Shown: piece after piece, positions 3,919 to 63,492 of the stretch
How positions within the stretch are numbered: the first letter of the stretch is position 1
Layout of the letters: each line of letters starts with the position of its first letter
Assembly (NCBI GenBank): GCA_046563655.1
Contig: CM102284.1
Location: 1,302,001-1,366,000, forward strand
Length of the DNA stretch: 64,000 bases
Reading direction: 5' to 3'
Source: Yuukianura sp. NJ FZ-2021
Taxonomy: Eukaryota
Translations under genes and position numbers: made by a program
The notes under the pieces: generated by a model
What the model was told of the DNA's origin: nothing
The model's database searches: none
The model's input: only the letters and a program-made list of their open reading frames with translations

Positions 3919-4865
3919 GGCTTTTTTTTTCTTTTGCTAAATTGAGTTTCGAGAAATGAGCTTCATTGTCTTCGTAGGTAGCAAATTTACAGCAAATCTT
4001 TGAATACGTGGGACTTACGATTGGATCACTCCAAACTAAAATTATATGATTTTAGACTTGAGTCAACAAAATTACAAAATTTACATTTCGCAGAAGCTAA
4101 GCGTGAAAACATATGTAAGAATAGTGTTAGAATATGAAATCTACTACTCGGAGTATATAATTTAAGTAAACTGACGAGGCGTGTCAACGTTAAATAACTG
4201 TCGGTGTATCGACAATAATTAAAAGACACCGATTTACATCGGGTGTTGAAAACCACATTCATCTGAACTCTTCAATTATAGAAAACACCAAGCGTTTTCC
4301 TAAACTCCAAAGCATTCTATTAACTAAAAGTTTATGGACTTTTACGTTTACTATATAGTGAATTGTAATTATACCTCACCATTTCGAATTATAACAACCT
4401 TCATCGATTTGTCGATAACCAATGGAGTAGAAATATTGGCGTCGTTAGTTTTTCGGCTTAGACTATTTTTTCTTTAAATGTCTGTTTTTTTTAAAGGGTG
4501 CTTCAATATATTCAAATTATTAATAACCTTGCTACCCAGGCCAAGGTAAAAGACGATAAGTCTTAGCACTGTCTAAAATTGGGTTTAGTATTAGTAATTT
4601 AAAACAAAGTACATAACAATATGCATGAAATGGCATACCCAAGCGAAATTTTTTCTATTTCACATATTGATTTTTGTTGAAGTCCATTCCAGGATTGGCA
4701 CATCATGCTAGTCAAGCATTAACATGATTAATCAACATTATGAGAAATAATTCATTAAGCTTCAAACACATTAAGATTCACACTTATGATGATCTAGTAT
4801 GATTTTGCTTCCTGGCCACAGGTTTGATAGAATTTGTCAAAAAAAATTTTACCCAAAAGTATACA

Positions 4866-36716: not shown

Positions 36717-37499
36717 TTACTCTACTTTGCTAATTAAATATGCTACTTGGTTGCAGCCTTTTCGATGATCCGGATTCAAGTATTTCAGCAACTCAGGAGA
36801 GGCAGGCTTGTGAGACAATATTTCGACTCTTGACCAGGCTCCAAATAAATCATGGATTTCGGCTTTTCTAACTGGTCGGGGTCTCACGGGACTACAACTT
36901 CCTTTTTCAAACTCAAACACATTCAGAATATAAACGAATCCAGCACCTTCAAAACCAAGTAAGCAATTAGCATTTAGCATTGATTTAGTTCTCACAAACA
37001 AAAATATTTAAATTGTTCTAATTTTTATAGAAATATTACTGCCCAGCCCTTTACGAAGTGCTTCGACGTAAGGACGTCGGAGATGTTCTGGAATTATACT
37101 AAATGCGCCTTTGTCCCAAACTGCCTCAAATGGTCCATATTTTTCAAACGGACATTTGAAAAAGTCGCCAAGGAAAATCACTAGTCTTCCATCCTTGGAT
37201 TTGAAAACACTTTCTTCTGGCTCAAATTCCAACGAAATGTTGGTTTCCTTTTGAAAATCTTGAATCGCTTCTAGAACTGCTTCGACTCCGAAAACACTGT
37301 AACCGAGGTCCAATAAGTACGGAATGTCACGGGATTTTCCACAGAGCGGTACACAAACAGTTCCGGTTTTTGGAAACCGGTGGATATAGGCATGGAGGGT
37401 GGAGTTGACCTCTGATCTGTGCCATCCCGCCCTACCAAACCGGTAGCACTCTGTGTAGTGATCTATTTCAGCCTTCACAAGGTCAGTTTGATTAGTCAT
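36717..37499 (-). CDS. TPMT: Thiopurine S-methyltransferase family protein, 2 exons, ~229 aa
   Basis: Exons 37499-37040 and 36946-36717. TPMT motifs GWH...VN..L, VCVPLCGKSRDIPYL...GYSVFGVE, GDFF, FEAVWDKGAF. Confidence 0.85.
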
Positions 37500-38912
37500 T
37501 TTCGGTTCTAAAATAAATTATAAAATATTTTCTAAAGTATTTTGATATTATAATCAATGTTAAGATTTTTGCATCAGCAGGCGACGTTGCCATTTGCTAC
37601 AAACTTCCTTCAATCTTAGGTTCTTAGGTAAAAAAATTTTTTGACAATTTTTATCAAATGTTAAAAGTTTTCACAAATTGTTAAATTAAATGTAAAGTTT
37701 TAGAGAAGAAAAACTACTAACTACAAGAGTAGCTAAGGTTTTTTTTTATTTTGTTTCACGTTTACGTTACTGACTCTACGTGTGAATTTGGAGATGCAAC
37801 TAACATTTAAGGCTGCTCAAATTGTGAATCACTCAAAAACTAAATATTCAAATTAAGTTTTTTAGTTTTAAATCAGAAGTAGACTTTCCTAAGCAGAAAA
37901 TTAACTTAATTTGTGACCTACGATGCGTCTGGTTAGGAATTCTGCTGAGTTGTTAAGTATAAGTTATGTTTATGTAAGTCATGCAATAATAAAAATTGCG
38001 AGTCTTCCTGCCTGTTTTGACGTGCGATGAGATCAGAAGGCCATGAGGCTATGTTTAGCTTTTGCTTTTTATGAGATTGTCTAAAAGTAATTTGAGTCTG
38101 GGTTAAAAAGTTCTATCTTCTTTTACTCAAGAACAACGTTGGTGATGGTGAGGACACACTTTAACTCGTACCTTATCCGGATTAACGTTGTGACTCTTTC
38201 TGTTTCGTACAATTAACCAGTCATTTTTTTAAGTTACTTTACAGGTTTTGTTGGGTTCATCGCTGAAAGTTCACTTTATCTTTTTCATTGCAAGTGAACA
38301 GTATTTTGTGTTCCGTCCAAAAGACTTTTTTTTTCTCAATTGAAGCAGTTTATTGAAAAACCACTTGAGACAACCTGCTAAAAGTCTATATTGCGCCTCT
38401 CAAGTGGACGTAAGTTTCGAAATTATTGATTTTTAACACATCAAAACTGATGTGCTGTTAAAATGAATATTATGTAAAGTATTATTATGCTTTTAGAACT
38501 TAATACTAACTAAAATTTTACGTCAAAGGTTATGTTAGTGTGTACCTTTTGTAGAAGAACACTAAGGGCGTTGACACACAAAAGTTCTTATTGAATTCTG
38601 AATTTTATGTTGAGTGGGCTGAATGGGTGGGACGGTGGGAGTGGGAGATTTTTAGTCATCGGCTTTCGGCATTTGGACGCTTCAGACTTATGGAATTCGC
38701 AAAAACCCCACAAAACAACATTTTTTGTAACTTTTTGTAATGTTTTTTATGAACTGTCAGAACCAACTTCTATGGTTTTTTGGAAAAAATTGCAAATTTA
38801 TGAAAGGCAAATACTGCAACGATGTGGAACTTTTTTTTCAACTTTTTTTTTACTTTGTTAAACGTAGTAATTAACTCATTTTGAATTAATTTTTTGAATT
38901 TTAGTTTAGAGA

Positions 38913-46968: not shown

Positions 46969-48234
46969 CTAACAGATAGCTAGAGAATCTGGACTTGTCT
47001 TGACAATAACAAGTCTGTTCAGTAGAACTCGGAGTTCAGGCGTGGCAGGATCCTCCTTGGTATGAATCCTCACGTGACACCCGAATTCTTCTAAACAGTT
47101 GAAGCCGAGGTCACAAAATGGACAAGTATAGTTGACCTCGGGTGACCTCTGTTGACCTTCAGATCCACTCTGTTCAGAATGCGTCTGCGTCGATTCAGTT
47201 TCTGCTTTGTTTACATTGGGTTGTTCAAGTGGCTCCAAAGCATGGTACTCTTCACCGGGCACGGAGCATGAGTAGAACGTCTCTCCAGTGTGGATCTGCA
47301 CATGCCCAACTAAATCTTCATTCACAAATGGTTGTGCAAAGATCTCACTTGTAAACTCCGCTTCCGATTGGACAGGAACTGTATGATAGCGTTGAACGTG
47401 ATTCGCTAGTCGGCATTTCTTGGAAAAACTTTTGTCACAATCTGCACACTGGTGACGCTTGCCCAATTTAAGCCTAGTAGCAACTTTTGGGGTCTTGTGA
47501 CCTTTGACCTTTGTGTGACCTACTTTGGGGATATTTTGCTTTTTCTTCATATTTGACATGGCATGTCTGCGCATGTGATGTCTGACATCAGATTTTGCAG
47601 AAAATGACATTGTGCATACTGTGCAATTGAAGGGACGTTCATTGTTGTGTCGTCGAATGTGATCTGATAAGGAGTGCATCCGATGTGTTGCAAATGGACA
47701 CAACTGACAACGGTGTTTTTTGGCGCCATGAATTTTTATATGTGAAAGCATGTAGCTTTTGTGCACAAATCGCATAGGACACTTGGTACACTTAAATGGC
47801 TGTTGTCTGGGGTAACTGCGCATGTGCGGTGCCAATTTTCTTAGAGTTTGCGCACTACTGTCACTAATTCCACACTTTTCCTTAATAGTTGGCTCATGCT
47901 TTACTGATTTCCGGCGTGATTTGGTTTTTGACGTGGTAGGGGTGTCAAGCTGCCAAGATTTTTCTGGATCCTGCGCATGAAGTTTTTGTAAATGGCGCAC
48001 AATTTGTTTTTTTCTACTAAACTTAGCGGAACACACTGTGCACTGGAATCGTTTGACCTCGAGGTGGATCTCATTCACGTGGACACGTAAGTTGCCCCGT
48101 TGTGTGAACTTTTTTGAACAAATTGTGCACTGAAATGGTTTTGGTTCACAGTGAACTTGCGTAGAGTGTAAAACAAACCACTTTTCATTAATGAAATCTT
48201 CTGCACATGCGTTACATCTATACGTTAACTTCAT
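46969..48234 (-). CDS. C2H2 zinc-finger protein (~8 intact plus degenerate fingers)
   Basis: Repeated CxxC...HxxxH with EKP/ERP-type linkers; C-terminal finger followed by LRVLLNRL. Confidence 0.85.
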   Translation of the reverse strand: MKLTYRCNACAEDFINEKWFVLHSTQVHCEPKPFQCTICSKKFTQRGNLRVHVNEIHLEVKRFQCTVCSAKFSRKKQIVRHLQKLHAQDPEKSWQLDTPTTSKTKSRRKSVKHEPTIKEKCGISDSSAQTLRKLAPHMRSYPRQQPFKCTKCPMRFVHKSYMLSHIKIHGAKKHRCQLCPFATHRMHSLSDHIRRHNNERPFNCTVCTMSFSAKSDVRHHMRRHAMSNMKKKQNIPKVGHTKVKGHKTPKVATRLKLGKRHQCADCDKSFSKKCRLANHVQRYHTVPVQSEAEFTSEIFAQPFVNEDLVGHVQIHTGETFYSCSVPGEEYHALEPLEQPNVNKAETESTQTHSEQSGSEGQQRSPEVNYTCPFCDLGFNCLEEFGCHVRIHTKEDPATPELRVLLNRLVIVKTSPDSLAIC

Positions 48235-49599
48235 TTTTCAACTTTTCTTTTACAAGGTTGCCTCGAAACAATGAACTTTTTTAGTAGCAAACACTTATGT
48301 GGAACAAATGAAAAAAAAAAGAAGTTAAAAACATTCACTTGTTGAAGGTAAAAAAAATTGAAAAATTTAACTTGTCGAACTTATACTTGGCAATATTTTC
48401 AAAATTCGGATTGAATTTTCTATTGGTGAACTGATCACATAAACTTTTGGTTTCACTTTGTCTTTTCACCTCCTTTGTCTTTTACTTATCTGAAACTAAC
48501 GGAAACCCAATGAGGTTAGTAATTTATAAAAAAGAACTATAGATTTTATAGCTCTATGAATAACTAAAGTTCAACTGACACTAAAAAGTGTGTTAAATAT
48601 CACTTTCCAAAATTCCAAATCCGAACTGGAGGCTGTATAAACTTGAACTGACGACTGAACCCTAACATTAAACTAACGTGAAGTTCGCGTAACCTTCAGT
48701 CTTTATGACAAAGAAGAAAAAGATCTACTAGCGTTACGGTTGAAGAAAAATCATTCAAACGTGACTGCTTGAGCTCCTGTGTAGTGTTTTTCAAAAAAAA
48801 TGTTAGGCTCCTCTCTTTCAAAAAAATTTCATTCTTTCAATTGAACTTCCCCTACCTTTTGAAAAAAGAATCTGCTGCAATACAACTGCTTTTCAAAAAT
48901 TTGACAAAGCAGATGTTGAGTGAAGGACCCTGTTTAGAACTGGAATTGAAAAGTGAAACGATGGGAAAGCGGTGAGGTAGAAATTGCCCAAGGCGTTTGA
49001 AAAAAAATTATTTCCAAGTTTGTTTTTTGAACCTCGGTGATTAGAAATATCAGTAAATATTTAGAGCTGGAGGTCAAACTTTTCTGAAACACAAGAAAGA
49101 AAAAGAAATGTTGTGAAGAAAAAGAACTTTTATTGAAATACCTTTATTTCTCCAATAAGTTATGTACTATGTATTCATTTCCATTTCAATTAAAAAGAAG
49201 TTTTTTTTTTAAAGAAAACAGAAACTGAAAGTTCATAAAAACGGAAACCTGTTTCTATCCTTGCTCAAATGAAAACTTTGGGTAAATTTTCTTAGTTGGT
49301 TTTGTTGACAGCTTTGACAGGCTACTAAATCGAATATTATATACTAATATTATATATAATTAAATATATATAATTTTACCTAACTACACCTATTACTTTT
49401 TATTATATATATATAATAAATACTAATACATAATAAGAGGCTAATAAATCGAATTCAAAACAAAGTTCTGATATTTTTTTTGAAAGCCTCAAGGTGCATT
49501 TTTGGAAACGGGTCAAGGAAATAAATTAAGGAAGGTAAATATTATGTAAATATTTTTGACAACTCTACTAATTGATAATAAATCAAGCACAAGTTAAGC

Positions 49600-50852
49600 C
49601 TAATTAAATGTAACTAGCATGAATGCGATTCCGCGCGCAATGTTGTCCAGAAGCGTCAACTTGGCTTCACTCTCCATGTAGTAGAATCCTCCAATTTTGG
49701 ATTTGATGACTGGAATTGACCTTAGGTCAATTTCAAGTTCCACATGACCTCTGCGTTTCATGTTCCGATGAAACTGTTTTGATATGTTGAAAACAAGTGA
49801 CATGGCAAGTGCTCCAGGTATAAAAAAGAGTATAAGGATAATAAGATAAACAAAAAACAAAGAAAACAAGAATGGATCTAGTTTTGCTCTGAGGCAAACC
49901 ACAGCAAATACAACAACGTACAATGACAAAATTGATGCAAGTTTTGTCATTGGAACAAAAATGGCGCCAAATACAGAATTATGCATTTCATTCAAAATGG
50001 TCACTGTTCGGTACAACTTAATGCGCTCGTTCTGAAATGATTTGTTGTCTTCAGTTCCAACTGCATGCGAATCCATACTGTAAGTAAAGAAACAAAATTT
50101 TAGTAGGAAACACAATAAATTTGTAAATTTTTAAGATTTGATATAATTTTACAGCCAAAATTTTGACTTGGAAAAAAACAATTAGTTTTGAACGAAATTA
50201 ACTAAACTTATTGGTGAATGAATTTTACTCACCATGACTTTTTGAGCCAAAACACAATAGTTGTAATTGATGGAATGAAAATAACTAAAAGTAAATTTGA
50301 ATCCAAGAGAAACGATGCACAAGTCAAAACTGTTCCAACTAAAAAGCAAAACTTGGAAATAACAGAACCAAATTCTCCAAATTTAAACCAAATCATTTGA
50401 AGACCGGCACTGCAAGCTGCAGCGGAGGCAAAAACTAAAATTGCGAAATATATTATTTCCGTCCAAAAATTTTTCGGACAAAAATCTTTTTTGAAAAATT
50501 TGTCCCTAAGAACTTTATCGCAGAGAATCAAACTGTTTCCAAATTGAAGTAGTTGATCCAAATCGTGTTGAATATTGAACTTAAGGACCATCCCAGTAAA
50601 GTAAAACAGGCCATACAAGGAATCCAAAATTCCGAGTGCTGCATTTTCATTTCTAAAGTGAGTTTTAGCTTCAGTCAAATAGAAAATGAAAAGCAAAATG
50701 TTCAGAAGCTGCAAAATTGCTGAGAAGAACGTTTTCCAAATGGATTTCCGTTGCAGCAGAATCCCATTTTGAAATTCAAATTGAACAAATTTTGGTTTTG
50801 ATAAAATTGTCAACGTAGTTGAGTAAATTTTGAATTCAGCAACGGAAATCAT
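49600..50852 (-). CDS. GR-like copy 12 (displaced from main array)
   Basis: Exon1 50852-50233, exon2 50077-49600; in frame; same upstream motifs as array copies. Confidence 0.8.
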
Positions 50853-51704
50853 AGCTCAGCAAATTTTTTGTTGCTTAAAATGGGTTTTGAAAAATGAAAC
50901 CCTTCTGTGTATTGGAGACAACGAATTTATAGGGAATCGTGAGCAAATTAGTCGGAATAGAATATAATCATTCTGTGTATGTATTTCAAGACATTTAAAC
51001 TAAACTGAAAATTTAGTTGAAGTAAAAGTTGTTTACCTAACTAAGCTAAGTAAACTGAAAAAGAGGCGTAACACATTACATGACAAATAACGGCCGTAAT
51101 AACAAATAACTTTTTCCTAATTAACGTCCATCGAGAACAATTAACGGCGTATTACAATGAATAAAGGTCTTACTAAGTAAGTTAATAAAGTTAAACTGCT
51201 CCACTTAAAAATTTGTTCGTAATGATACACTATATATTTGTGGTACAGTTAATTTTCCATTGGTTTTTGTTACAAATTGAGGCGTAATTATAGCTTACCA
51301 TTTTGAACTAGTATAAGTATCATTGATTTGTACTTATAACATCAATAAATCGAATTAGCATACGTTTTAATTTTTTTTTCAAGGTTTCAAGTTTTATTGT
51401 TAACAGCAAAGCTTTATTATACTGTTTGTGTATTTGAGTAATATGCTCTTATCTATTTTTTTTCTAACCCGTTTTTGGGAATCTTCAAATGTACACAAAT
51501 TAATTGATAATTAATAAATCAGGAATTTAATTGAATTATAATTTTGTATTGTTAAAAAAACACACATTTTTTAAAGAAAATCAAAACTGAAATTTGAAAT
51601 TTCCTGAATACAGAAACCTGTTTCAATGTTTGTTCATATGAAAATTTTGCGTTTTTCTTATTGGTTTTATTGACAGCTTCGAAATGCTACAGACAGGTTC
51701 GATT

Positions 51705-53200
51705 TCATTCGGATTTGGGTTTCACTTCGGCATTCTCCGCAGGAGCTTTTGATTCTTCTGCGGCAACTTTTGGTATGTCGAAAGTTAGTAAGTTCGTTAT
51801 GAATTTAGCACTTTTGTCATCGAATGGCCACAGTTGCAATTGTTTACACAGAATCGTTTTCTGGAGAAGCCATTCTCCGTATGACACCAGTATGAAGATG
51901 GATCCAAGGTTGGTGATGAGTGGAAAAAGTGTAGAAACCGATACTGAAACAATTTCTACTGCTACGATAATGTTCGGAACGTAAGCCCACAGCCATGGGA
52001 CAGGAACTGCCAATCCAAACGGTTTTAGCACAATTTCTGTTATGTCAATCAGTTCACAGTTGAGGATGAAGTCAATTAAATAACCCACGAAGAGCACAAT
52101 TCCGACAAAAGTGACAAGGCGCATGACCGGAATCAAAATCATTCCCACGGCGACAATCGTGTACAGCAGCAGCAAAATGTTGGCCACGATGAGCTCGTTG
52201 TAGCGAATTATGTAGTTGGTTAGGTTTGATTCGAAAGCGATACCTAAGAAAAAATGAAAATTTCAAAAAATTTAGCAACACAAAACTTATTTATTGAAAA
52301 AGTTGTGTTTTTTGTTATGTTTGTATATGTTATTTCACTTCACTTACGCAAGCGTCCTAGAATAGTTTTGACCAAGGCCTCAACCAGTTCCATACTCAAA
52401 TTTTTGAAGACGTCTCGCAATGTTGTTAGCAATAAACTTGTAAGCACATTTCCGGAAGACAGCACACTCGTAAGCGCTCCGATGCTGCCAGTCAGCGTTC
52501 CAGCAGTTCCAGCAAGTACATCTGTTGTACCGGAAAGTAAACTTGCACTTCCGCTGGTGAGTGCTCCTGCCCCACCGGCCACCAAAGAAGTCCCACCGGA
52601 AACCAATTGGGTCCCACCGGAAATTAGGCTGCTTGTTCCGGAAGATGTCAGCTCGACTCCAGTTGATGCAAGGCTTGTAGCTCCGCTAGAAACAGTTTTG
52701 GCTCCACTGGTTAAAATCGAAGCCCCACCGGAAAGAATTTGAGTCCCACCGGAAAGTAAACTTGACCCACCATCAGAAAGCGAAGATGCTGTAAGAACAG
52801 AATCTGCCATACTCGAAACAACCGTAGTGGCTCCACTTGCCAGCAAAGAGGTCCCACCAGAGAGAAGTTGAGCCCCACCAGAAAAAAGTTGAGTCCCACC
52901 GGAAAACAAGCTTCCTCCTTTTTCAGAATTTGAATTTTGTTTCAACATTGTGGAATCTGTAGGTTTGGAATCCGATACAGGCATGCTGGTGGCTCCAGTT
53001 GCAATGTCTTGTGCCCCACTTGTCAGAAATGTGGTCCCACCGGAAACTAGGTTTGACCCACCGGCAGCAAGCTCAGACGTAGTAGGAACAGAATCTTTAA
53101 CGGTGGATGCAAAAGCAGCGGCTCCGCTGGTAAGCAAGTTTGTTCCGGGCAGTGAAACGGAAGGCAATGAGGGAACTTTCAAATTTTTTAAAGGAAACAT
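51705..53200 (-). CDS. G/S/A/T-rich amphipathic-repeat protein with hydrophobic C-terminal domain, paralog 1, ~463 aa
   Basis: Exon1 53200-52348 (C|GTAAGT) and exon2 52243-51705 (ttag|GT) join ORFs 52340..53200 and 51705..52187 in frame. Confidence 0.75.
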
Positions 53201-53525
53201 TTTTAAAAACGGCTTTAAACTTTGAGCAAAATTTGAAAATCCTTTTGATTTAAAATTTGAACAAGATTTAAATTTTTAAGTCTGCTTCGTCTAGTGAATG
53301 ACCACCACTTGAAAATTTTCCAATTTTTGAATTGGCCAAATTGAAGTATAAACCACAAAACCGCCGTCTATTTTTTGTTAATTAGCCCAGCAATTGATAA
53401 TTTGATAAAAATTCAAGGAAATACAAGTCTTCACCTGCAATGTCCATAAAACTTATTATGTTTATAGGTATGCATTATATGCACTTTCATTACTTGCAAT
53501 ACATAAAATTTCACCTCTTTAAATT

Positions 53526-53629
53526 AAATTTCTTCCTTTACATCAAATTTCAATCCTTACATAAAATTTATGTTGTAAATTTCTTCCTTTACATCAAATT
53601 TCAATCCTTACATAAAATTTATGTTGTAA
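53526..53629. repeat. Perfect 51-bp tandem duplication
   Basis: AAATTTCTTCCTTTACATCAAATTTCAATCCTTACATAAAATTTATGTTGT x2. Confidence 0.9.
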
Positions 53630-53784
53630 CACAAGAATTTACTTGTTAAAAATTCGTGAATTTATATAAATTAAAACATATTCTCTAATACATAACATTT
53701 GTTGCCTAGCAGCAAGCCTGGTTTCAGTCACTATGTCGTTGGTATCAAGAGTTTTAGTTTTAAAAATTTAAAAATTTCTTTGAA

Positions 53785-55831
53785 TCATTCTGATTTGACT
53801 TTTGTGGCCTCTTGTTGATCAAAAATGAGTTTGATCAGAAGCCAATCAGTAAAAGCCACAAAGTACCCAATCGTACCGAGGTATGTAATTATCGGTAGCT
53901 CCACCCAGACAAGAATAACGAATCCATAGTAAATGCAAAATGTTGGAACGTATGGCCATAACCATGGAAACGGTATTCCAAGTCCAAGCGGCTTCAGAAG
54001 GATTTCAGTGATATCGAACAATCCACACGTGAAGAGAAATTCTATTAGAAATCCAGCCAACCACACAACTGCAGCGAAAACCAAATAGGCCAAAATCGGT
54101 ACCGCGATGATTGCGCCGGCAACGATTGAAAACAATATGAGAAGGAGGTTGCACGTAACAATGTCTGTAACGGGCGATATGAAGTTGGTTAGGTTTGATC
54201 CCAGAAGTGTGCCTGAAACGAATTTAAATTTTAGCGCCAAATTTTTGTATTAACTAATGTTATGTATACGTTATACTATGTTATTATATGCTATATTATG
54301 CTATGTTTATGTTATTATGGGCTATATGTTATGCATAAGAAATGATATGCTTACGGAGTTGAGATAGAAGTGTTGTGACTAGCGCCACAATGTACTTGAT
54401 GTTTAAATTTTTAAGCACCTCCATGAGTATTTGAGTAACAAGAGTAGTGAGAATGTTGCCTACCAACAGAGCGTTTGTGAGTGCACCGACGCTTCCGAGT
54501 AGAGCACCGGTCGTACCGACCAAAGCTCCGGTCGTATGTCCCAAAACCTGGGTGGTACCGGAGAGCAGAGTGGAGGTACCGGTACTGAGAAGACCGATAC
54601 CGCCAGATGCACCGGACACTAACAAGTTGGCTCCACCGGATAACAAATCCGTTGCACCAACAGAAGAAACTCCGCTGGCAAGAGCTCCAGCTCCACTTGT
54701 CAGCATTGTGGCCCCACCAGAAACGAGATCGGCCCCACCATGTAAGAGACTGCTAGTACCGGAAGTTGTGATTTCCGCAGCACTTGAAGCCACGTCGGTT
54801 ACTCCTGAAACGAAAGTTGTAGCTCCACTGGTTAAAAGTGTGGCCCCACCAGAAACGAGATCGGCCCCACCATGCAAAAGACTGCTAGTACCGGATGTTG
54901 TAATTTCGGCTGCACTTGAAGCCACATCAGCTACACCAGAAAGGAGCGTTGTAGTTCCACTTGTTAAAAGCGAGGCCCCACCAGAAAGCAGCGAAGTCCC
55001 ACCATAAAACAAACTCGCTCCGGCACCGAACAACGAGCTTCCGCCACTAGGAGCTTCTTCTGCAGGAGTGTTGGATTCGTGGGAAGCTTCTGTTGGGAGC
55101 ACTTCCGTTCCACTTGTTAGCAGTGTGGCCCCACCAGAAACTAAATCGGCCCCACCTGAAACTAATTCCGCTCCATCAGAAATAAAGCTAATTGTTCCAG
55201 AAGTTGTTACTTCTGCTGCACTTGAGGCCAAATCCGCTCCACTGGAAACTAGCGTAGTCGCTCCGCTTGTCAGAGCTTCAGCTCCACTCGTCAAAAGCGA
55301 GGCCCCACCGGATAAAAGCGCCGTCCCACCAGAAAACAATTTTGATCCGGCACTGAGAAATGAACTTCCGGTTGTTACTTGATCATCGTGGCTGGCCTCA
55401 TGTTGAGAAGTTTCGTTTGAAATAGTTCCCGTTCCGTTTGTAACTCCTTCCGCTCCGCTTGATATTAGAGCCGCTCCACTTGAACTTACATCGGCTCCAC
55501 CAGAAAGAAGGTTGGTGGCTCCAGAAGTGGTAACTTCGGCTGCAATAGAAACAATATCCACTCCACTCGAAACGAACGTTGTAGTTCCGCTCGCGACCGC
55601 TTCCGCTCCGCTTGCTAACACTGAAGTTCCGCTCGAAATCAAGTCGACTCCACCGTGTAAAATGGTTCCAGCACCAGAAGTCGTAAGATCGGCTGCACTG
55701 GAAACAAAAGTTGTAGCTCCGGTTGTGAGCCCCTGGACACCACTTGTTAAAAATGAGGCTCCGCTTGTAAGCAAACCTGTTCCAGGAATAGATGGAGTTG
55801 GTAACGAAGGAATTTTGAAACTTTTGAACAT
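53785..55831 (-). CDS. G/S/A/T-rich amphipathic-repeat protein with hydrophobic C-terminal domain, paralog 2, ~634 aa
   Basis: Exon1 55831-54355 (C|GTAAGC), exon2 54212-53785 (tcag|GC); same intron position as paralog 1; 132-nt internal repeat. Confidence 0.75.
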
Positions 55832-56352
55832 TTTTAAATAATTTTGAAATAAAAGATGAAAAAGTAATGACTTTGCTTAAAGCAAGTCACAAATTTAACT
55901 CTAGCGTTTTTTGGAGTTGATCTGTAATTATTAGCAATGACGGAATAAAAAATGTTAATAACCGCAAAACCGCACGGCTTTTCTTAGTTAATTGAAAGAT
56001 TGGAAGTAATTAAAATTTGAAAGCCATTCGTCACCTGTCTGGTCATCCTTGTACAAACAGAATATTAATTTAATTTAAAAAAAAATGAAATTTCACTACA
56101 AATACATACCAATTCAAATATTAATATAGAAATACAATGAATACGGTTTAAGTTATTTTGACATTTACCAGTATTTTACTATATAAGTTCATTTAAATTT
56201 TAAGCAGTTTAAGGAAATTTGAACAAAAAAAAATGATACAATGATGATTATTCAATGATAAAAAAATGATAACTATTGAAAAAAAATATTTCAAAAGTAA
56301 TTTTGACAAAGGTCAAGTTAGTTTTAAAATATGAAATATAGACAGAGTTGGA

Positions 56353-57420
56353 TTAAATTTGAATTCGTGTAAGGACTATTTTGAGTACTCGCGGAGTAGA
56401 CTCTTTCGTGTGGATTTTGAAATGACGTCCAAATTCATTATAGCATTCGAAACCAGCGTTGCAAAATTCACAACTGAATTTGAATTTCCTTCCGAGTTGA
56501 TTTTCACTTTCCCGCTTCTCCAATTCTTCCTTCATTTCTTTCTTCTGACGTTGCTCTAGTTTTTTGTGGCGTGTTGTTACCTGATGTTTCTTTAAATTCC
56601 GAGCAGATGCAAAGTCGACTGCGCATGTTTGGCAGGAATAAGGCTTCTCTCCTGTGTGTCGCCTAACGTGGATGTTCAAATTTACCTTTAGGTCAAATTG
56701 ACTTGCACACAGTTTACACTTGAAAAGTTTTTCCTCTTTGTGTTTCTGCTCATGGTGTAGCAAATTATGTTTTGTGGGAAATCCTTCTCCGCATGTTGAG
56801 CACTGGAATCTGTTCCGCCATTCTGAATGTGTCTTTAAATGAGCCCGTCGGTTGCCTCTGATTTGTTGTTGACAGAATTGACAGAAGAAGGGTTTTCCTA
56901 TTCCATGTATTCTGCGCATGTGTTTCTTCAAATCCATATTCCGTGGGAAAACTTTGGGACATAATGTACATTTCTGAGGACTCTGTATATTATGAAGCTC
57001 TACATGAGCCAAAAGATCTTGCTTCTGTCGAGCAGCATAAGGGCAAAGTGAACATGAAAATTCCTTGTTGAGGTCGTGAACTTTTTCATGACTTTCTTTA
57101 CTCTGTTTTCTTGAAAATCGTCGCGAACATATTTTGCATTTAAATGGTTTTTCGCCTGTGTGACTTCGCATGTGTTGCGCGAGGAGGGCGGGAATTCCAA
57201 ACGCATGTTCACAGACGTTGCATTTGTAATTCTTAGTTTCATCGTGCACCCTTTGATGTGTTTTGAATCCGTTCCTGGATGTAAATTCTTTTCCGCATTC
57301 CTCACATTTGTCCAAATCCTGTCCAGTGTGTATGCGCAAGTGATACGCCAAGTCTATCTTCTTATCAAACGTTTTGAGACACAGTGTACAGTTGTGGCGC
57401 TTGTCTTCCGTTTTTCTCAT
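56353..57420 (-). CDS. C2H2 zinc-finger protein, cluster copy 1 (11 fingers, 355 aa)
   Basis: ATG of MRKTED chosen by alignment to paralogs; TGEKP linkers; C-terminus RVLKIVLTRIQI. Confidence 0.85.
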   Translation of the reverse strand: MRKTEDKRHNCTLCLKTFDKKIDLAYHLRIHTGQDLDKCEECGKEFTSRNGFKTHQRVHDETKNYKCNVCEHAFGIPALLAQHMRSHTGEKPFKCKICSRRFSRKQSKESHEKVHDLNKEFSCSLCPYAARQKQDLLAHVELHNIQSPQKCTLCPKVFPRNMDLKKHMRRIHGIGKPFFCQFCQQQIRGNRRAHLKTHSEWRNRFQCSTCGEGFPTKHNLLHHEQKHKEEKLFKCKLCASQFDLKVNLNIHVRRHTGEKPYSCQTCAVDFASARNLKKHQVTTRHKKLEQRQKKEMKEELEKRESENQLGRKFKFSCEFCNAGFECYNEFGRHFKIHTKESTPRVLKIVLTRIQI

Positions 57421-58288
57421 TTTGATTTCCGGTAACAGCTCTAGAACAAAATTCAACATTCAATTGTGAAAAATTGTAAAACAAAATAAGTAATGTTCTT
57501 ATCACATTTCCAAGCTATTTCGATTGTATCAACGCTCAACTGTGTCATACTTGTGTCAACGAACATAAACAAGCCTAACCTTAGCTAAATGAAGTTTTAT
57601 ACACACATTAACACAATTACCGTGTTGACACAATTCAGTTGATGCAATGGCAGTTGATAGATTGACGCAATGGTGTGCTCTTCTCATAACCTACTAATTA
57701 GCAGTTAGTTGAGTTAAAATTAAACTGACCTGCCTAGAAAAAACTGCCAGTACTCACCAGTAATTTTTTTCAGAATGTAAAGTTTCTACTAAATTTTTTG
57801 AAAATCACAACAAGGAATGGAAAGTTAGGCAAATGATTCTTGTCATCTTGTTCCTCGTTCAAAAGTTTTTTAACTCCAACACTGCATACAAAAACGTACA
57901 GGATGATCACTATTTTTAGAAAATATTTTTGAAACAACATGGCCTGGGGCTTATGCTTAAATATAAATTCGTGGAAGAAATTTAGAGTTCAAGTAGTATT
58001 TTACTTCTGAAACTTTTCTGTATGCTCCCCTAACCGTCAACGCGATTTTATTTTTTTCACAACAAAAACTTCATTATAAAAATTTATGTAACCTGACTTA
58101 ACCAACTTGAACTAAGAAAAATCAAAGTAAAATTTAGTAGAATTAAAAATCTTTGCAGTATATTGTCATTAAAATAAAAACTTGCTTGAAAAATGTTAAA
58201 ATTCATGCCCAGCAGATTTTTCAGGTTTAAATTGAAATATAATACAACTAAAAGTGGATTTAAAATATCAAATATACAAAGAGTTCGG

Positions 58289-59362
58289 TTAAATTTGAAT
58301 TCGTGTAAGAACAATTTTGAGTACTCGCATCGTAAACTCTTTCGTGTGGATTTTCAAATGATGTCCAAATTCATCATAGCAATCGAAACCAACGTCGCAA
58401 AATTCACAAATGAATTTGAGTTGCCCGCCGAGTTGCATCTCACCTTCCCGCGTTTCCAATTCTTCCTTCCCTTGCATTTTTTGACTTTGCTCTACTGCTT
58501 TTTTATGTCTAGTAGCGAGATGATGTTTTTTTAAATCCTGAGCAGATACAAACGCGACAGTGCATGTTTCGCACGAATAAGGCTTCTCCCCTGTGTGTCT
58601 CCGAACATGGACATCCAACTTCGCCTTTTCAGTAAATTGTCTTGCGCACAATTTGCAAATGAAAAGTTTTATTCCTTTGTGTCTCTGTTCGTGGAGTTGC
58701 AAATTATGTTTTCGGAAAAATCCTTTTCCGCATGTTGGACATCGGAATTTGTTTCGCCATTCTTCATGTGTCATTAAATGAGCCCGTTGGTTACCTCTGA
58801 TTTGTTGTTGACAGTATTTGCAGGAGAAGGGTTTTCCTATTCCATGTATTCTGCGCATGTGATTCTTCAAATCCACACCCCGTGGGAAAACCTTGGGACA
58901 TGCTGTACATTTCTGAGGAGTCTGCTTGTTATGTACTAGTTGCATGTGGCGAACAAGAAGGCAGCGGTGTCGAGCAGCGTAAGAGCAAAGTGAACATAGA
59001 AATTCCTTGTTTGCGTTGTGAACTTTTTCATGACTTTGCATATTCTGTTTTGTTGCAAATCTTCGGGAGCATATTTTGCACTGAAATGGTTTTTCGCCGG
59101 TGTGACGACGCATGTGTATCGTGAGTTTTGCGGGAATTGCAAATGCATGATGACAGACGCTGCATTTATAACTCTGAGTTTCATCGTGTACCCTTTGATG
59201 TGTTCTGAGTCCGTTCCTGGATGCAAATGTTTTTCCGCATTGCTCACATTTGTCCAAAACCTGTCCAGTGTGTATACGCAAGTGATACGCCAAGTCTCCT
59301 TCTTTAGGAAACGTTTTGGGACATAATGTACATTTGTGTCGCTGGTCTGCCGCTTTCCTCAT
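58289..59362 (-). CDS. C2H2 zinc-finger protein, cluster copy 2 (11 fingers)
   Basis: ATG of MRKAADQ; colinear with copy 1. Confidence 0.85.
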   Translation of the reverse strand: MRKAADQRHKCTLCPKTFPKEGDLAYHLRIHTGQVLDKCEQCGKTFASRNGLRTHQRVHDETQSYKCSVCHHAFAIPAKLTIHMRRHTGEKPFQCKICSRRFATKQNMQSHEKVHNANKEFLCSLCSYAARHRCLLVRHMQLVHNKQTPQKCTACPKVFPRGVDLKNHMRRIHGIGKPFSCKYCQQQIRGNQRAHLMTHEEWRNKFRCPTCGKGFFRKHNLQLHEQRHKGIKLFICKLCARQFTEKAKLDVHVRRHTGEKPYSCETCTVAFVSAQDLKKHHLATRHKKAVEQSQKMQGKEELETREGEMQLGGQLKFICEFCDVGFDCYDEFGHHLKIHTKEFTMRVLKIVLTRIQI

Positions 59363-60300
59363 TTTGATTTGCGGCAACACACCTCTAGAAAAAAATGCAA
59401 CATTCAATTTTGAAAAAAAAACTAAATGCAACAAAAAATGTTGTTGTTTTTTTGATAAAGTATCATGTCTGTAGTCTGTATTAAATTTCATATCCCAGAT
59501 TTGTTCCATGCTATTGGGTCAATTGTATCAATTACCATTCCATCAACTTATTTGTGTCAAGTGGAATTCCATCAACACTCAACTGTGTCAGCGGCTACTT
59601 GTTTCAACGAACCTCATCAAATCTAACCCATGCGATATTTAACCTTACATATGCTGACACAATTGGCAGGTTGACACGTTTCTAGTTTACACAGTTCAGT
59701 TGATACAATGGCAGTTGATACGATTGAGTTGACACAAGGCGTGTTACCTAATAGTTAGCCGAGTAATACTAATTAGTAGTTAGTTGAGTTAAAATTAAAC
59801 TGACCTGCCTTAAGAAAACTGCCACAACTTGTTAAATATTTTCAGATTGTGCAAAGGCGATACTTTCTTTTATGAAAATCACAAAAGAGTGGAAGAGCTA
59901 CGCAAATGACTCTTGTTCCCTCCTTTTTTAAGTTTTTTAATTCCAACTGCATAGAAAAACGTACAGGACGGTCCGTATTTTTAGAAAAGTTTTTTGAAAC
60001 AGAATAGCCTTGGGCTTGTGCTTAAATTTAAATTCGTTTAAGAACTTATTTGAACTCCCACGCTATCCATTTCAAAACTTTTATGTACTCATGTTTAAAT
60101 AGGAATTTCACTATCCTATATGAACATTGAAACCGATTTAAGTAATGTTTAGCAGCATTTAATTTACAATGGTTGAACATATTGACTTTGTCAAATTTTA
60201 AAGGTTTCCATAAAATTTAAACAGAAAAAAATGTTATATCATTTCAAATTCAAATGTAGCGCAACCAAGTTTTAGAATATGAAATATACAAAAGCTTGAA

Positions 60301-61275
60301 TTAAATTTGAATTCGTGTAAGTACTACTTTGAGTACTCGCGTCGTAGACTCTTTCGTGTGGATTTTCAAATGACGTCCAAATTCATCGCAGCAATCGAAA
60401 CCGGCGTTGCAAAATTCACAAATGAATTTGAATCTCCCACCGAGTTGATTTTGACTTCCCGGCTTTTCCAATTCGTCCTTCACTTCTTTCTTTTGACGTT
60501 GCTCAACTTTTTTGTGGCGAGTAGTCCGCTGATGACTCTTTAAATTTTGGGCGGATACAAAGTCGATCGCGCACTTGAAAAGTTTTTCTTCTTTGTGTTT
60601 CTGCTCATGGAATTTCAAATTATATTTTGTGGGAAATCCTTCTCCGCATGTTTCACACTGGAATCTGTTCCGCCATTCTTCATGTGTCATTAAATGAGTC
60701 CATCGGCTACCACTGATTTGTTGTTGACAGAATTTGCAGAAAAAGGGTTTTCCTATTCCATGTATTCTGCGCATGTGATTCTTCAAATCCACACCCCGTA
60801 GGAAAACTTTGCGACATGCTGTACATTTTTGAGGAGTCTGCATGTTGTGGAATTCCATGTGAACCAAGAGACTGTGCTTTCGTCGAGCAGCATAAGGGCA
60901 AAGGGAACACGAAAATTCTTTGTTGACGTCGTGAACTTTTCGATGCCTTTGTAAATTCTGCTTTGTTGAAAATCGTCGAAAACATATTTTGCACGTGAAT
61001 GGTTTTTCGCCTGTGTGACTGCGCATATGCTCCTCGAGGTTGGCGGCAATCGAAAACCCATGATTACATACGTCGCATTTATAATTCTTAGTTTCATCGT
61101 GTACCTTTAGGTGTAATTTGAGTCCGCACCTTGATGTAAATTCTTTCCCGCATTGTTCACATTTGTCTAAATCCTGTCCAGTGTGTATACGCAAGTGATA
61201 CGCCAAGTCTACTTTTTCAGTAAATCCTTTTGGACACAGTGTACATTTGTGTCGTTTGTCTGCCGCTTTCCGCAT
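60301..61275 (-). CDS. C2H2 zinc-finger protein, cluster copy 3 (31-aa in-frame deletion)
   Basis: Colinear with copy 1 except LFKC|AIDF junction removing finger 9 and one Cys ligand of finger 10. Confidence 0.85.
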   Translation of the reverse strand: MRKAADKRHKCTLCPKGFTEKVDLAYHLRIHTGQDLDKCEQCGKEFTSRCGLKLHLKVHDETKNYKCDVCNHGFSIAANLEEHMRSHTGEKPFTCKICFRRFSTKQNLQRHRKVHDVNKEFSCSLCPYAARRKHSLLVHMEFHNMQTPQKCTACRKVFLRGVDLKNHMRRIHGIGKPFFCKFCQQQISGSRWTHLMTHEEWRNRFQCETCGEGFPTKYNLKFHEQKHKEEKLFKCAIDFVSAQNLKSHQRTTRHKKVEQRQKKEVKDELEKPGSQNQLGGRFKFICEFCNAGFDCCDEFGRHLKIHTKESTTRVLKVVLTRIQI

Positions 61276-62345
61276 TTTTAATTTTCAGCAACAGCTCTAC
61301 AACGAACATGCAAAATTCAATTTTAAGCGATTGTAAGAAAAATGTTATAGAAAAAAATAAGTTGTTATTAGATCCCAAAGTTGTTTCATGTCATTGTCAA
61401 TTGAATTGTATCAACTACCATTGTATCAACTAAACTGTGTCGACTGGAATTCCATCAACGCTCAACTGTGGAAACGTCTACTTGAATCAACCTAGCATAA
61501 TCAAACCTTCAGCAAAAGTAAATTTAGCTATTCACGTTGCCAGTATCACTGTTGACACATTTTAAGTTTACAAATTGATACAAATCTATTGATACAATGC
61601 CGTACTGCCTCCAGAGCTATTAATAAGCAACTAGTTGAGTTTAAATTATACTGACTTGTCTGAAGAAAAATGCCAATTCTTGTTAAATTTTTCCGGAATG
61701 TGCAAAGTTGGTAGTTTCTTTTTGTTTCGAATATCACAATTGGTGGAAGCTGAGGAATGATTTTTGCCTTTTCTTCAAAGTTCTTTTAATTTCGACTGCA
61801 AACAAAAACGTATAGCACAGTGCGTATTTTTAGAAAAGGTTTGTGAAACAACATAGCTTGGGGCTTTGTGCTTAAATAATTCGTTTAAGAGCTTATTTTG
61901 AGCTACGCTTTATTATTTTTTTCAAACATTCATGTAATCTATAACAGTAAACGTGAATTATATTTTTTTTAGAAACAAAAACTTCATTTAAGGAAAAATT
62001 ATGTAACCTAACTTGGCCAACTTGAACTGAGCAAAGTCAAAGTAAAATTTAGTACAGTTAAAAAATCTCTTTTTTTTTATATATTACCTTTGTGGTGAGT
62101 AGTGCTCTTGAATACACTCTGCTAGTCTTGTATAAGCGGAACTCTGATTTAATTTAAAATTAAATTAATTTTCTATAGCTGATAAACATGCCAACACATA
62201 TAAAACGGTTTATATTAGTTTATGCGTAGTTTGTATTTCAAAAATTTCCATAAAATTTAAATATAGAAAATGTAATATTGACAAATGTGGCACAATTGCG
62301 TAAAATTAGTTTAAAATATCAAATATACAAAACATTCAATTAAAT

Positions 62346-63395
62346 TTAAGTTCGTGTAAGCACTATTTTTAGTTCTCGTGTCGTAGACTCTTTCGTGTGG
62401 ATTTTCAAATGACGTCTAAATACATCGTTGCAATCAAATCCAGCGTCACAAAATTCACAACAGTATTTGAATCTCCCGCCGAGTTGATTTTTACTTCCCC
62501 GTTTTTCTAATTCGTCCTTCTTACGTTGCTCAAGTATTTTGTGACCAGTAGTGCCAAGATGCTTCCATAAACTCTGAGCGGATACAAACTCCACTGAACA
62601 GGTTTGGCACGAATAAGGTTTTTCCCCTGTGTGTCTCCTGACATGAACATCTAAGTATGTCTTTACAGCGAATTGCCTTGCGCACAATTTGCAATTGAAA
62701 AGTTTGTCCTGTTTGTGCTTCTGTTCATGGCGTTGCAATTGTACTTTTAGTGGAAATCCTTCTCCGCATGTTTCACACTGGAGTCTGTTTCGCCATTCTT
62801 CATGCGTCATTAAATGAGCCCAGTGGTTACCGCTGATTTGCTGTTGACAGAATTTGCAGAAGACAGGTTTTCCTATTCCATGCACTTGGCGCATGTGAAT
62901 CTTCAAATCCATTTCACGTACGAACACCTTGGGACATGCTGTACATTTCTGAGGAGTTTGCTTGTTGTGTAGTTCCAAATGGACCAACAGATTCTGCTTC
63001 TGCCGAGCAGCGTAAGGGCAAAGCGAACACCGAAAATCTTTGTTGAGGTCGTGAACTTTTTCATGACATTCTTTATTATATTTTGTTGTAAATCGTCGCG
63101 GGCATATTTTGCACTGAAATGGTTTCTCGCCTGTATGACGACGCATGTGTATCGCGAGGTTAGCGGCAAATGGAAACGCATGATTACAGACGTTGCATTT
63201 GTAATTCTTGGTTTCATCGTGCGACCTTTGATGTGTTTTGAGTCCATTCCTTGATGCAAATTCCTTTCCGCATTGCTTACATTTATCCAAATCCTGTGCA
63301 GTGTGTATGCGTAAGTGATACGCCAAGTCTTCCCTATGAGCAAACCCTTTGCGACACAGTGTACATTTATGTCGCTTGTCTCCCGCTTTCCCCAT
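62346..63395 (-). CDS. C2H2 zinc-finger protein, cluster copy 4 (11 fingers)
   Basis: Colinear with copies 1-3; ends RELKIVLTRT. Confidence 0.85.
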   Translation of the reverse strand: MGKAGDKRHKCTLCRKGFAHREDLAYHLRIHTAQDLDKCKQCGKEFASRNGLKTHQRSHDETKNYKCNVCNHAFPFAANLAIHMRRHTGEKPFQCKICPRRFTTKYNKECHEKVHDLNKDFRCSLCPYAARQKQNLLVHLELHNKQTPQKCTACPKVFVREMDLKIHMRQVHGIGKPVFCKFCQQQISGNHWAHLMTHEEWRNRLQCETCGEGFPLKVQLQRHEQKHKQDKLFNCKLCARQFAVKTYLDVHVRRHTGEKPYSCQTCSVEFVSAQSLWKHLGTTGHKILEQRKKDELEKRGSKNQLGGRFKYCCEFCDAGFDCNDVFRRHLKIHTKESTTRELKIVLTRT

Positions 63396-63492
63396 TTTGA
63401 TTGAGCTCTAGAACAAGATTAAACATTAAATTGTGAGGAGCTGCAAAAAAGTAATATAATGTGTTATTAATGATGTTATTAATTGTATTAGT

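Follow-up and report, generated by a model that had tools for sequence, protein, structure and literature searches.

Oleosin and LDAF1/promethin combine long hydrophobic stretches bearing central prolines with amphipathic flanks, are inserted into the endoplasmic reticulum (ER) and gain access to the droplet monolayer. Reticulon C-termini carry dilysine-type signals, the loop between the reticulon hairpins is about 60 residues long, and amphipathic lipid packing sensor (ALPS) motifs carry bulky hydrophobic residues. It has been reported that reticulons and REEPs have two transmembrane pairs and an amphipathic helix (PMC7835363), and that ALPS motifs have few charges, a polar face of Gly, Ser and Thr and a preference for the weakly charged membranes of the ER and the early or cis-Golgi (PMC4569407). 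Table 1 of PMC5889406 lists for the ALPS motif of GMAP210 a hydrophobic moment (muH) of 0.48 with hydrophobic, aromatic and charged fractions of 0.37, 0.05 and 0.05, and for perilipin 4 (Plin4) a moment of 0.257 with fractions of 0.35, 0.002 and 0.15; the charged fraction listed there is 0.35 for apoA-I and 0.24 for synuclein. According to the same paper, Plin4 whose net charge was reversed to −1 per 33-mer no longer reached droplets except where its hydrophobicity had been increased (PMC5889406). The stretch analysed here, 64,000 nucleotides of Yuukianura sp. NJ FZ-2021 (assembly GCA_046563655.1, contig CM102284.1, positions 1,302,001 to 1,366,000; "the window" below), carries two genes, A and B, each encoding a long array of 7- and 8-residue units followed by a hydrophobic domain. 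The reading we favour, at a little under an even chance, is that their products would be ER-retained double-hairpin proteins in which a giant amphipathic helix, cytosolic and almost free of charges, adsorbs to lipid surfaces rich in packing defects; a role at lipid droplets is one possibility within that reading and, taken by itself, a rather unlikely one.

Genes A and B lie head to tail on the minus strand with 584 nt between them, and their features are collected in the table below. Joining the exons by their coordinates, with splice junctions placed by sequence logic alone, yields a coding sequence of 1905 nt (634 aa) for A and of 1392 nt (463 aa) for B, each with a single terminal stop. 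Both introns begin with GTAAG, end with a pyrimidine-rich tract and AG, and split the same codon in phase 1; the GC content is 0.50 and 0.43 in exons 1 and 2 of A and 0.49 and 0.43 in those of B, and falls to 0.25 (A) and 0.21 (B) in the introns. The start context AAAAATG is common to the two genes. The exon 2 products of A and B share 56/130 identities (E 3e-35) and the exon 1 products are 42% identical (E 9e-40), and no third copy of either gene was found by tblastn within the 64-kb window. The ratio of non-synonymous to synonymous substitution rates (dN/dS) is 0.154 over the 193 C-terminal codons that align between A and B, a comparison in which dS is saturated. Taken at this level, A and B are genuine protein-coding genes, duplicated in tandem and belonging to one lineage-restricted family. 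The first-pass annotation had proposed two paralogous spliced genes of 463 and 634 aa; both lengths were reproduced with canonical splice sites, and the paralogy is borne out by an identity of about 42–43% in both exons.

Dynamic-programming segmentation resolves exon 1 of gene A into 67 units (51 of 7 residues and 16 of 8), most of them inside the repeat region, and exon 1 of gene B into 38 units (27 of 7 residues and 11 of 8). The unit profile is G-[GAT]-[TAS]-[TSDE]-[LVIF]-[LVT]-[ST](-S), the mean unit length is 7.24–7.29, and the array of gene A is broken by two short acidic/His-rich interruptions near residues 137–161 and 246–261. Residue identity autocorrelation peaks at lags 7, 22, 44 and 51 (0.26–0.32 versus 0.124 expected). 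At lag 11 the identity is 0.09 in A and 0.14 in B and at lag 33 it is 0.11 and 0.09, which shows that neither an 11- nor a 33-residue period is present. At the DNA level, Tandem Repeats Finder (TRF) reports the 132-nt unit of gene A with 86% matches, together with several 21-nt arrays, and the 10-mer GCCCCACCAG occurs at 54711, 54843, 54975, 55128 and 52872, with none expected in 100 shuffles. The rhythm noticed at first pass, namely 7+7+8 residues, periods of 22 and 44 residues and 132 nt, and a variable repeat number, thus agrees with autocorrelation, TRF and segmentation; the 11-residue periodicity claimed alongside it does not hold, lag 11 not being raised and the base unit being 7/8 residues.

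The repeats are also constrained and of unusual composition. Between the 44-aa copies of gene A at residues 284–327 and 328–371, 39/44 residues are identical, and 13 synonymous and 5 non-synonymous differences give a dN/dS of 0.117; this value rests on that one pair, since other pairs, ungapped and out of register, were excluded. Because the two copies differ with such a low ratio, the repeat of gene A can be regarded as translated in the stated frame and constrained in sequence. In the repeat regions, Ser, Thr and Gly together account for 0.51–0.53 of the residues, hydrophobic residues for 0.34–0.38, charged residues for 0.066–0.070 and aromatic residues for 0.018–0.023, and the few charges are mostly acidic, with a net charge of −28 in A and −5 in B; the early remark that basic and aromatic residues are almost lacking fits these values. 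Over exon 1 as a whole, Gly makes up 15–16%, Ser plus Thr about 31–32% and Pro 1.4–2.5%.

The arrangement of hydrophobic residues in the repeats is compatible with an amphipathic helix. The hydrophobicity spectrum is strongest at 49–50 and 98–100 degrees per residue, where it exceeds all the shuffles, and shows nothing at 160–180 degrees. Kyte-Doolittle power at 98–100 degrees reaches 87–90 versus a shuffle maximum of 48–67, and the Fauchere-Pliska peak at 99–100 degrees is 7.5–7.7 versus 4.6–5.3. In 33-residue windows at 3-11 pitch the mean muH is 0.24 for A and 0.21 for B versus 0.112 for shuffles (maximum 0.16–0.17). Four whole blocks of 84, 120, 151 and 184 residues have a muH of 0.19–0.27 at 97.25–99.5 degrees (3.62–3.70 residues per turn), which was equalled by 0/500 residue shuffles in each block and by 1, 1, 23 and 16 of 500 unit-order shuffles in the four blocks; because shuffling the order of the units so seldom matches the observed moment, the interleaved 7s and 8s look tuned for a straight stripe. 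A 3-11 wheel computed from the unit profile places positions 1, 5, 2 and 6 (G, L, G/A, L/V) within about 130 degrees and positions 3, 7, 4 and 8 (T/A/S, S, T/D/E, S) on the opposite face. An 11/3 amphipathic helix had been suggested at the outset: the hydrophobic face on such a wheel is there, the stripe fitting a helix of about 3.6–3.7 residues per turn; the 11-residue period is missing. An AlphaFold2 (AF2) model of B exon 1 consists of helices at residues 20–37, 41–71, 95–141, 146–267 and 270–283 with no strand, its predicted local distance difference test score (pLDDT) being 47.7 (39–48 across the repeats).

Exon 2 encodes the hydrophobic domain, in which Kyte-Doolittle windows peak at 2.7–2.9. 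In gene A the domain contains the stretches I17–F65 and P80–F130 (exon 2 numbering). The invariant prolines P38 and P106, placed close to the middle of the one and the other, divide them into hydrophobic arms of 21–27 residues, each long enough for a bilayer span; this points to four tight spans or to a pair of hairpins hardly exposed on the opposite side of the membrane. The two stretches are joined by the loop at residues 66–89, D-I-T-E-I-x-L-K-P-x-G-L-x-x-P-x-P-W-L-W-x-Y-V-P, in which 18/24 positions are invariant between the paralogues. Over the whole exon 2 alignment 61/141 positions are invariant, including six prolines and three tryptophans, and the conserved hydrophobic domain and the motifs quoted for it at first pass are present. 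Among the last residues, K137, K139, S140 and E141 are invariant, and the tails otherwise diverge and differ by about 37 residues. It has been reported that K-x-K-x-x at a free C-terminus, with lysines at −3 and −5, is a COPI signal that returns membrane proteins to the ER (PMC3521961). No hydrophobic segment was detected at the N-terminus of either protein, the first segment with a Kyte-Doolittle KD19 value of at least 1.6 starting at residue 443 in A and 299 in B, in keeping with the earlier observation that a signal peptide is lacking. Because the number of hydrophobic arms is even and the C-terminus ends in K-x-K-x-x, the repeat region is predicted to be cytosolic, the topology itself being deduced only from the even arm number. 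The AF2 model of the C-terminal domain shows long helices with a pLDDT of 64.7 and a predicted template modelling score (pTM) of 0.36; this model and that of B exon 1 were each built from an alignment of only 2 sequences.

From these features the following mechanism can be put forward. The C-terminal 130 or so residues would form two helix-Pro-helix hydrophobic hairpins, either as four tight spans or as two monotopic hairpins, so that the two termini and the conserved loop would all face the cytosol at the ER membrane, and the terminal K-x-K-x-x would provide ER residence through COPI retrieval. The N-terminal 230–430 residues are probably unfolded in solution. On lipid with packing defects, be it a droplet monolayer or curved ER, the repeats would fold into a long, weakly hydrophobic and almost uncharged amphipathic helix, with a lipid-facing stripe of Leu/Val at unit positions 5 and 6 and Gly/Ala at positions 1 and 2, and a polar face of Ser, Thr and few Asp/Glu. 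The interleaved 7- and 8-residue units would keep this stripe straight at about 3.6–3.7 residues per turn. The membrane anchor would supply local concentration, so that a weak but very long helix may serve as a tethered coat or sensor, and the repeat number would shift by unequal exchange of the 132-nt unit. The roles in lipid storage, cuticular lipid handling and stress that were suggested at first pass are conjectural.

Several observations weigh against this mechanism. The peak at 98–100 degrees arises as the second harmonic of any repeat of 7.3 residues in which hydrophobic residues adjoin, and it is therefore compatible with a helix without being specific to a helix as against a beta-roll. 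The moment of the repeats (0.21–0.27) equals that of the weakest lipid-binding helix among those tabulated in PMC5889406 and reaches roughly half the ALPS value; the Gly content of exon 1 disfavours a helix, and the net charge of the repeats is negative in both proteins. Both AF2 models are of low confidence, and that of the C-terminal domain displays long straight helices and no hairpins. The K-x-K-x-x motif, being short, may owe its conservation to something else, and the N-L-T sequon found in both paralogues immediately ahead of the first hydrophobic stretch is sensible only if that side is luminal. In addition, the sole database signal obtained (LbR_Ice_bind and 3ULT, see below) points to a beta-roll.

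The low pLDDT across the repeats and a Gly, Ser and Thr content of about 51–53% are also what a permanently disordered, low-complexity cytosolic domain would show, one that does not bind lipid and serves as spacer or brush or as a cohesive region that associates with itself, with the function residing in the membrane domain and its loop. The almost twofold difference in repeat number between A and B and the position of the inter-hairpin loop as the most conserved part of the protein agree with this possibility, which we regard as unlikely, yet the most probable of the alternatives. It leaves the strict Leu/Val pairs and the 7/8 interleaving in helical phase, seldom matched by the unit-order shuffles (1–23 of 500), without a reason, and the dN/dS of 0.117 between repeat copies represents a constraint exceeding the needs of a spacer.

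Database searches returned no relatives of A and B, only one sub-threshold signal. A Pfam-A hmmscan of all four exon translations at E≤1 matched only LbR_Ice_bind, exon 2 of both genes being without a match; Pfam-A holds models for perilipin, reticulon and TB2/DP1/HVA22. For LbR_Ice_bind the scores are 27.4 bits (E 4e-6) for exon 1 of A and 28.6 bits (E 1.5e-6) for exon 1 of B, the gathering cut-off being 30 bits, and the Protein Data Bank (PDB) entry 3ULT aligns with B exon 1 at E 0.008, with a bias of 12.6 of 18.3 bits and an accuracy of 0.55, in an alignment that rests on S-G spacing. In protein searches at E≤0.001, none of the 873 longer candidates scored against exon 2 of gene A reached the threshold, and a profile of both exon 2 products gave 0 matches among 1.84 billion representatives. 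Among the exon 1 products, that of B alone was within the search, and 0/8000 of its best word-sharing candidates of near length passed the same threshold. Dipteran proteins are represented in the protein collection, as shown by the search with a neighbouring gene, which retrieved one from Bradysia odoriphaga, and the representative library is presumed to be derived from the same collection. The C-terminal profile gave 0 matches to PDB sequences at E≤10, and Foldseek of the C-terminal model against the PDB returned nothing at E≤0.001, its single row having an E of 8.5, a result of little weight given the low confidence of the model. A keyword search of the literature gave no description of such a family, although a search of this kind cannot prove absence. 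On present comparisons, A and B are a new sequence family and a variation on a known physical principle. The first-pass annotation had called the family unrecognised, and in the Pfam, PDB and large-library searches no relative was detectable and no confident full-length match to a characterised family appeared; the C-terminal exon, which it had proposed to compare with oleosin, promethin/LDAF1 and other hairpin families, has no Pfam or PDB sequence match. Of the structural comparison it had proposed, the AF2 part gave a low-confidence model of the repeat exon that consists entirely of helix, and the Foldseek part says little.

Separately, a search of metagenomes for the domain kept one of 110 pattern-matching stretches, which was rejected as a chance match on the PFPWLWPY pattern. 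The contig concerned is bacterial, with a GC content of 58–63%, and the matching frame runs antisense to another open reading frame (ORF) and lies beside a bacterial ORF of 530 aa, which we take from its appearance to be helicase-like.

The LbR_Ice_bind signal raises the question of whether the repeats form a folded beta-roll or beta-solenoid like the ice-recrystallisation-inhibition protein of Lolium perenne, with one short strand and an S-G turn per unit, 14–15 or 22 residues per coil, and flat Ser/Thr faces, ice- or surface-binding, carried on a membrane anchor. The grass beta-roll fold has a 7/7.5-residue rhythm, and in three-sided beta-helices coils of 22 residues are common. LbR_Ice_bind is the only family matched, 3ULT aligns at a suggestive E-value, the mean unit length of 7.24–7.29 resembles the rhythm of that fold, 7+7+8 adds up to a 22-residue coil, and the regular S-G-G turn-formers and the abundance of Gly, Ser and Thr would suit such a structure. 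However, both Pfam scores fall below the curated 30-bit cut-off, the 3ULT alignment is strongly composition-biased and reflects S-G spacing, there is no hydrophobic power at 160–180 degrees, and the AF2 model is without any strand. Furthermore, one of the two adjacent Leu/Val residues of each unit would be solvent-exposed on every strand, and an ice-binding domain in a cytosolic, ER-retained protein would have no obvious use. We consider the beta-roll improbable.

A still less probable arrangement is that the repeats lie in the lumen or outside the cell and bear heavy O- or N-glycosylation, forming a mucin-like stalk on a membrane anchor. Ser plus Thr at about 31–32% of exon 1 and the conserved N-L-T sequon adjoining the first hydrophobic stretch would be in line with a stalk, but 285–500 residues would have to be translocated with no N-terminal hydrophobic segment and no signal peptide, Pro at 1.4–2.5% is unlike that of mucin domains, and the even arm number together with the C-terminal K-x-K-x-x indicates a cytosolic N-terminus. 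That A and B are non-functional, being either decaying duplicates or frames that a GC-rich tandem repeat happens to leave open, is very improbable: no homologue was found in the protein searches and the opposite strand also has open frames of 124–190 aa, but those plus-strand frames are broken into several pieces, dN/dS is 0.12–0.15, and the ATG context, the phase-1 intron position, canonical splice sites, the C-terminus and intact frames have all been kept at an identity of only 42–43%.

Table. Positions within the 64-kb window of the features of genes A and B, with the observation or method on which each rests.
Feature	Positions	Strand	Description and basis
Gene A exon 1	54355-55831	minus	Residues 1-492 and first base of codon 493; ATG at 55831; 54355 is followed immediately by the donor GTAAGC; N-terminal motif, repeat region and conserved hydrophobic helix preceding the membrane domain
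Gene A repeat region	54497-55783	minus	Residues 17-445; unit segmentation, autocorrelation, hydrophobic moment
Youngest part of gene A array	54689-54987	minus	132-nt (44-aa) tandem unit, 2.3 copies; TRF
Gene A intron	54213-54354	minus	142 nt, phase 1, GTAAGC...TTTCAG, GC 0.25; GT..AG ends and composition drop
Gene A exon 2	53785-54212	minus	Residues 493-634 and stop; membrane domain; translation
Gene A hydrophobic domain	53821-54162	minus	Two stretches of about 49 residues; KD19 up to 2.91
Gene A C-terminus K-V-K-S-E	53788-53802	minus	Lysines at -3 and -5
Gene B exon 1	52348-53200	minus	Residues 1-284 and first base of codon 285
Gene B repeat region	52466-53146	minus	Residues 19-245; unit segmentation, autocorrelation, hydrophobic moment
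Gene B intron	52244-52347	minus	104 nt, phase 1, GTAAGT...TCTTAG, GC 0.21; position homologous to gene A intron
Gene B exon 2	51705-52243	minus	Residues 285-463 and stop; membrane domain, longer tail
Gene B C-terminus K-P-K-S-E	51708-51722	minus	Lysines at -3 and -5

The DNA around the two genes contains some further features. In the spacer between the gene A stop and the gene B start, at 53525–53629, a 51-nt sequence is duplicated in tandem without any mismatch (2.1 copies, 100% matches). Upstream of both ATGs, at 55960–56037 and 53351–53437 on the minus strand, the words CAGGTGA, AATTAAC and GCGGTTTTG[CT]GGTT occur in collinear order, the last followed by an initiator-like GTCATT about 110–120 nt before each ATG, as judged by eye. 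Comparison of the A and B promoters yielded no more than these words and a 14-mer carrying a single mismatch (E 0.12), which is not significant, and the words may represent a shared promoter or chance in AT-rich DNA; the downstream comparison of A and B gave nothing notable. Opposite the gene A repeats (54435–55841), the plus strand has open frames of 124–190 aa with Pro-rich repeats of A-P-P-E-T type, split over several reading frames and most simply explained as a by-product of the codon content of the repeats.

Elsewhere in the window, a tandem array of two-exon genes occupies 991–28313 and 49603–50855 on the minus strand, each with a 208-aa ORF followed by one of 160–190 aa, both rich in hydrophobic segments. 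By tblastn the first exon was found at 11 loci (one split in two) with 61–68% identity and the second at 12 (one split, one partial) with 70–80%; no Pfam family was matched at E≤5, save for a meaningless tetraspanin row at E 0.25, and the array has the appearance of a lineage-specific family of multi-pass membrane or receptor-like proteins. Another 208-aa ORF, at 30017–30643 on the plus strand, was not matched by tblastn with the array exons. Two similar plus-strand genes at 31271–32871 and 34434–36023 have first ORFs of 342 and 341 aa with an F-box-like start (PF12937, E 2.5e-8 and 9.5e-7) and second ORFs of 168–195 aa with no Pfam match. An ORF at 37011–37517 on the minus strand matches thiopurine S-methyltransferase (TPMT; PF05724, E 6e-26), and its best named relative is a hypothetical protein of Bradysia odoriphaga (40% identity), followed among named relatives by a bacterial TPMT (Methyloprofundus, 31%), which hints at a gene of bacterial ancestry common to some lower Diptera. 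A cluster of C2H2 zinc-finger genes at 46972–48237 and 56356–63407 on the minus strand, with five ORFs of 327–422 aa (zf-H2C2_2, E down to 4e-42), directly flanks A and B. Finally, an intronless frame of 810 aa at 4803–7235 on the plus strand has hydrophobic segments in its second half and at its end and looks channel- or receptor-like by eye, with no Pfam match (best E 0.028, a DUF), and scanning the window for Rfam families and tRNAs gave nothing.

How amphipathic helices distinguish droplet monolayers from bilayers is still debated, and Plin4 is the main natural example of length offsetting weak hydrophobicity, with polar-face charges adding stability. If A and B were the tethered counterpart of Plin4 proposed below, they would provide the first natural giant packing-defect-sensing helix fused to a double-hairpin anchor. 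A second, unrelated giant repeat with almost no charges, Leu pairs and a permanent ER tether would be a natural test case revealing which features matter: length, charge pattern or tethering. As it stands, A and B are a constrained orphan family that standard annotation would discard as low complexity.

Compared with the known systems, the relatives proposed at first pass turn out to be the more distant ones. Exchangeable apolipoproteins, synuclein and group-3 late embryogenesis abundant proteins have 11/22-mers whose polar face is strongly charged and rich in Lys and Glu, and A and B have no Pfam match to them and a charged fraction of only 0.07, against 0.35 in apoA-I and 0.24 in synuclein (Table 1 of PMC5889406); ALPS motifs and Plin4 are closer. 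The Lolium perenne protein (LbR_Ice_bind, 3ULT) shares with the repeats a 7/7.5-residue rhythm, the S-G pair and one aliphatic residue per unit, but A and B are without its Asn/Thr-rich faces, Leu pairs replace the single Val, and AF2 gives a helix and no strand.

As for the membrane domain, the architecture predicted for A and B, two hydrophobic hairpins with an amphipathic helix, would be similar to that of reticulons and REEPs (Yop1), and ER residence is likely. Two hydrophobic stretches of about 49 residues with a central Pro are present in A and B, but AF2 draws straight helices there. Unlike reticulons and REEPs, A and B have no Pfam match to either family, the amphipathic region is N-terminal and 10–20 times longer, and the loop is of about 15–24 residues. 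With oleosin and LDAF1 they share long central-proline hydrophobic stretches flanked by amphipathic sequence; they differ in the lack of a Pfam match and in having two hairpins of about 49 residues in place of one 72-residue proline-knot hairpin, and no long tandem repeat is known in those families. Dilysine proteins retrieved by COPI are defined by lysines at −3 and −5 (KxKxx) or at −3 and −4 (KKxx) of the C-terminus (PMC3521961), and A and B have the former arrangement.

As for the repeats, A and B resemble the ALPS motifs of ArfGAP1, GMAP-210 and Nup133 in having few charges (0.066–0.070) and a polar face of Gly, Ser and Thr, unit positions 3, 4, 7 and 8 being mostly T/S/A/D/E. ALPS motifs, however, are 20–40 residues long with a moment of 0.44–0.48 (Table 1 of PMC5889406), whereas the repeats extend over 227–429 residues with a moment of 0.21–0.27, present only one Leu/Val pair per two turns, and are tethered to a membrane domain. 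The likeness to Plin4 lies in a very long tandem repeat of small residues with almost no aromatics, in a moment (0.21–0.27 against 0.257) and a hydrophobic fraction (0.34–0.38 against 0.35) of the same size, and in length, which would compensate weak binding in both (PMC5889406). The Plin4 unit, though, is a 33-mer (3x11), whereas that of A and B is of 7/8 residues (22/44) with no 11- or 33-residue period and no Pfam perilipin match; A and B are 7% charged and net negative, whereas Plin4 is 15% charged, with conserved Lys, Asp and Glu reported to serve lateral contacts (PMC8064757) and lacking in A and B; Leu pairs stand where Plin4 has Val, Thr or Ala; and Plin4 is soluble, whereas A and B are predicted to be membrane-anchored. 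The Leu pairs and the permanent tether might offset the net-negative charge. A more specific proposal, possible but doubtful, is that A and B are a membrane-tethered, independently evolved counterpart of Plin4: an integral ER protein bearing hundreds of cytosolic residues of uncharged ALPS-like helix, which would act as a coat or sensor for droplet monolayers or strongly curved ER in one lineage, with a repeat number tuned by unequal crossing-over. Because their values match those given in Table 1 of PMC5889406 and the description in PMC4569407, the repeats of A and B can be said to resemble Plin4 in their moment and hydrophobic fraction, and ALPS motifs in their charge and polar face.

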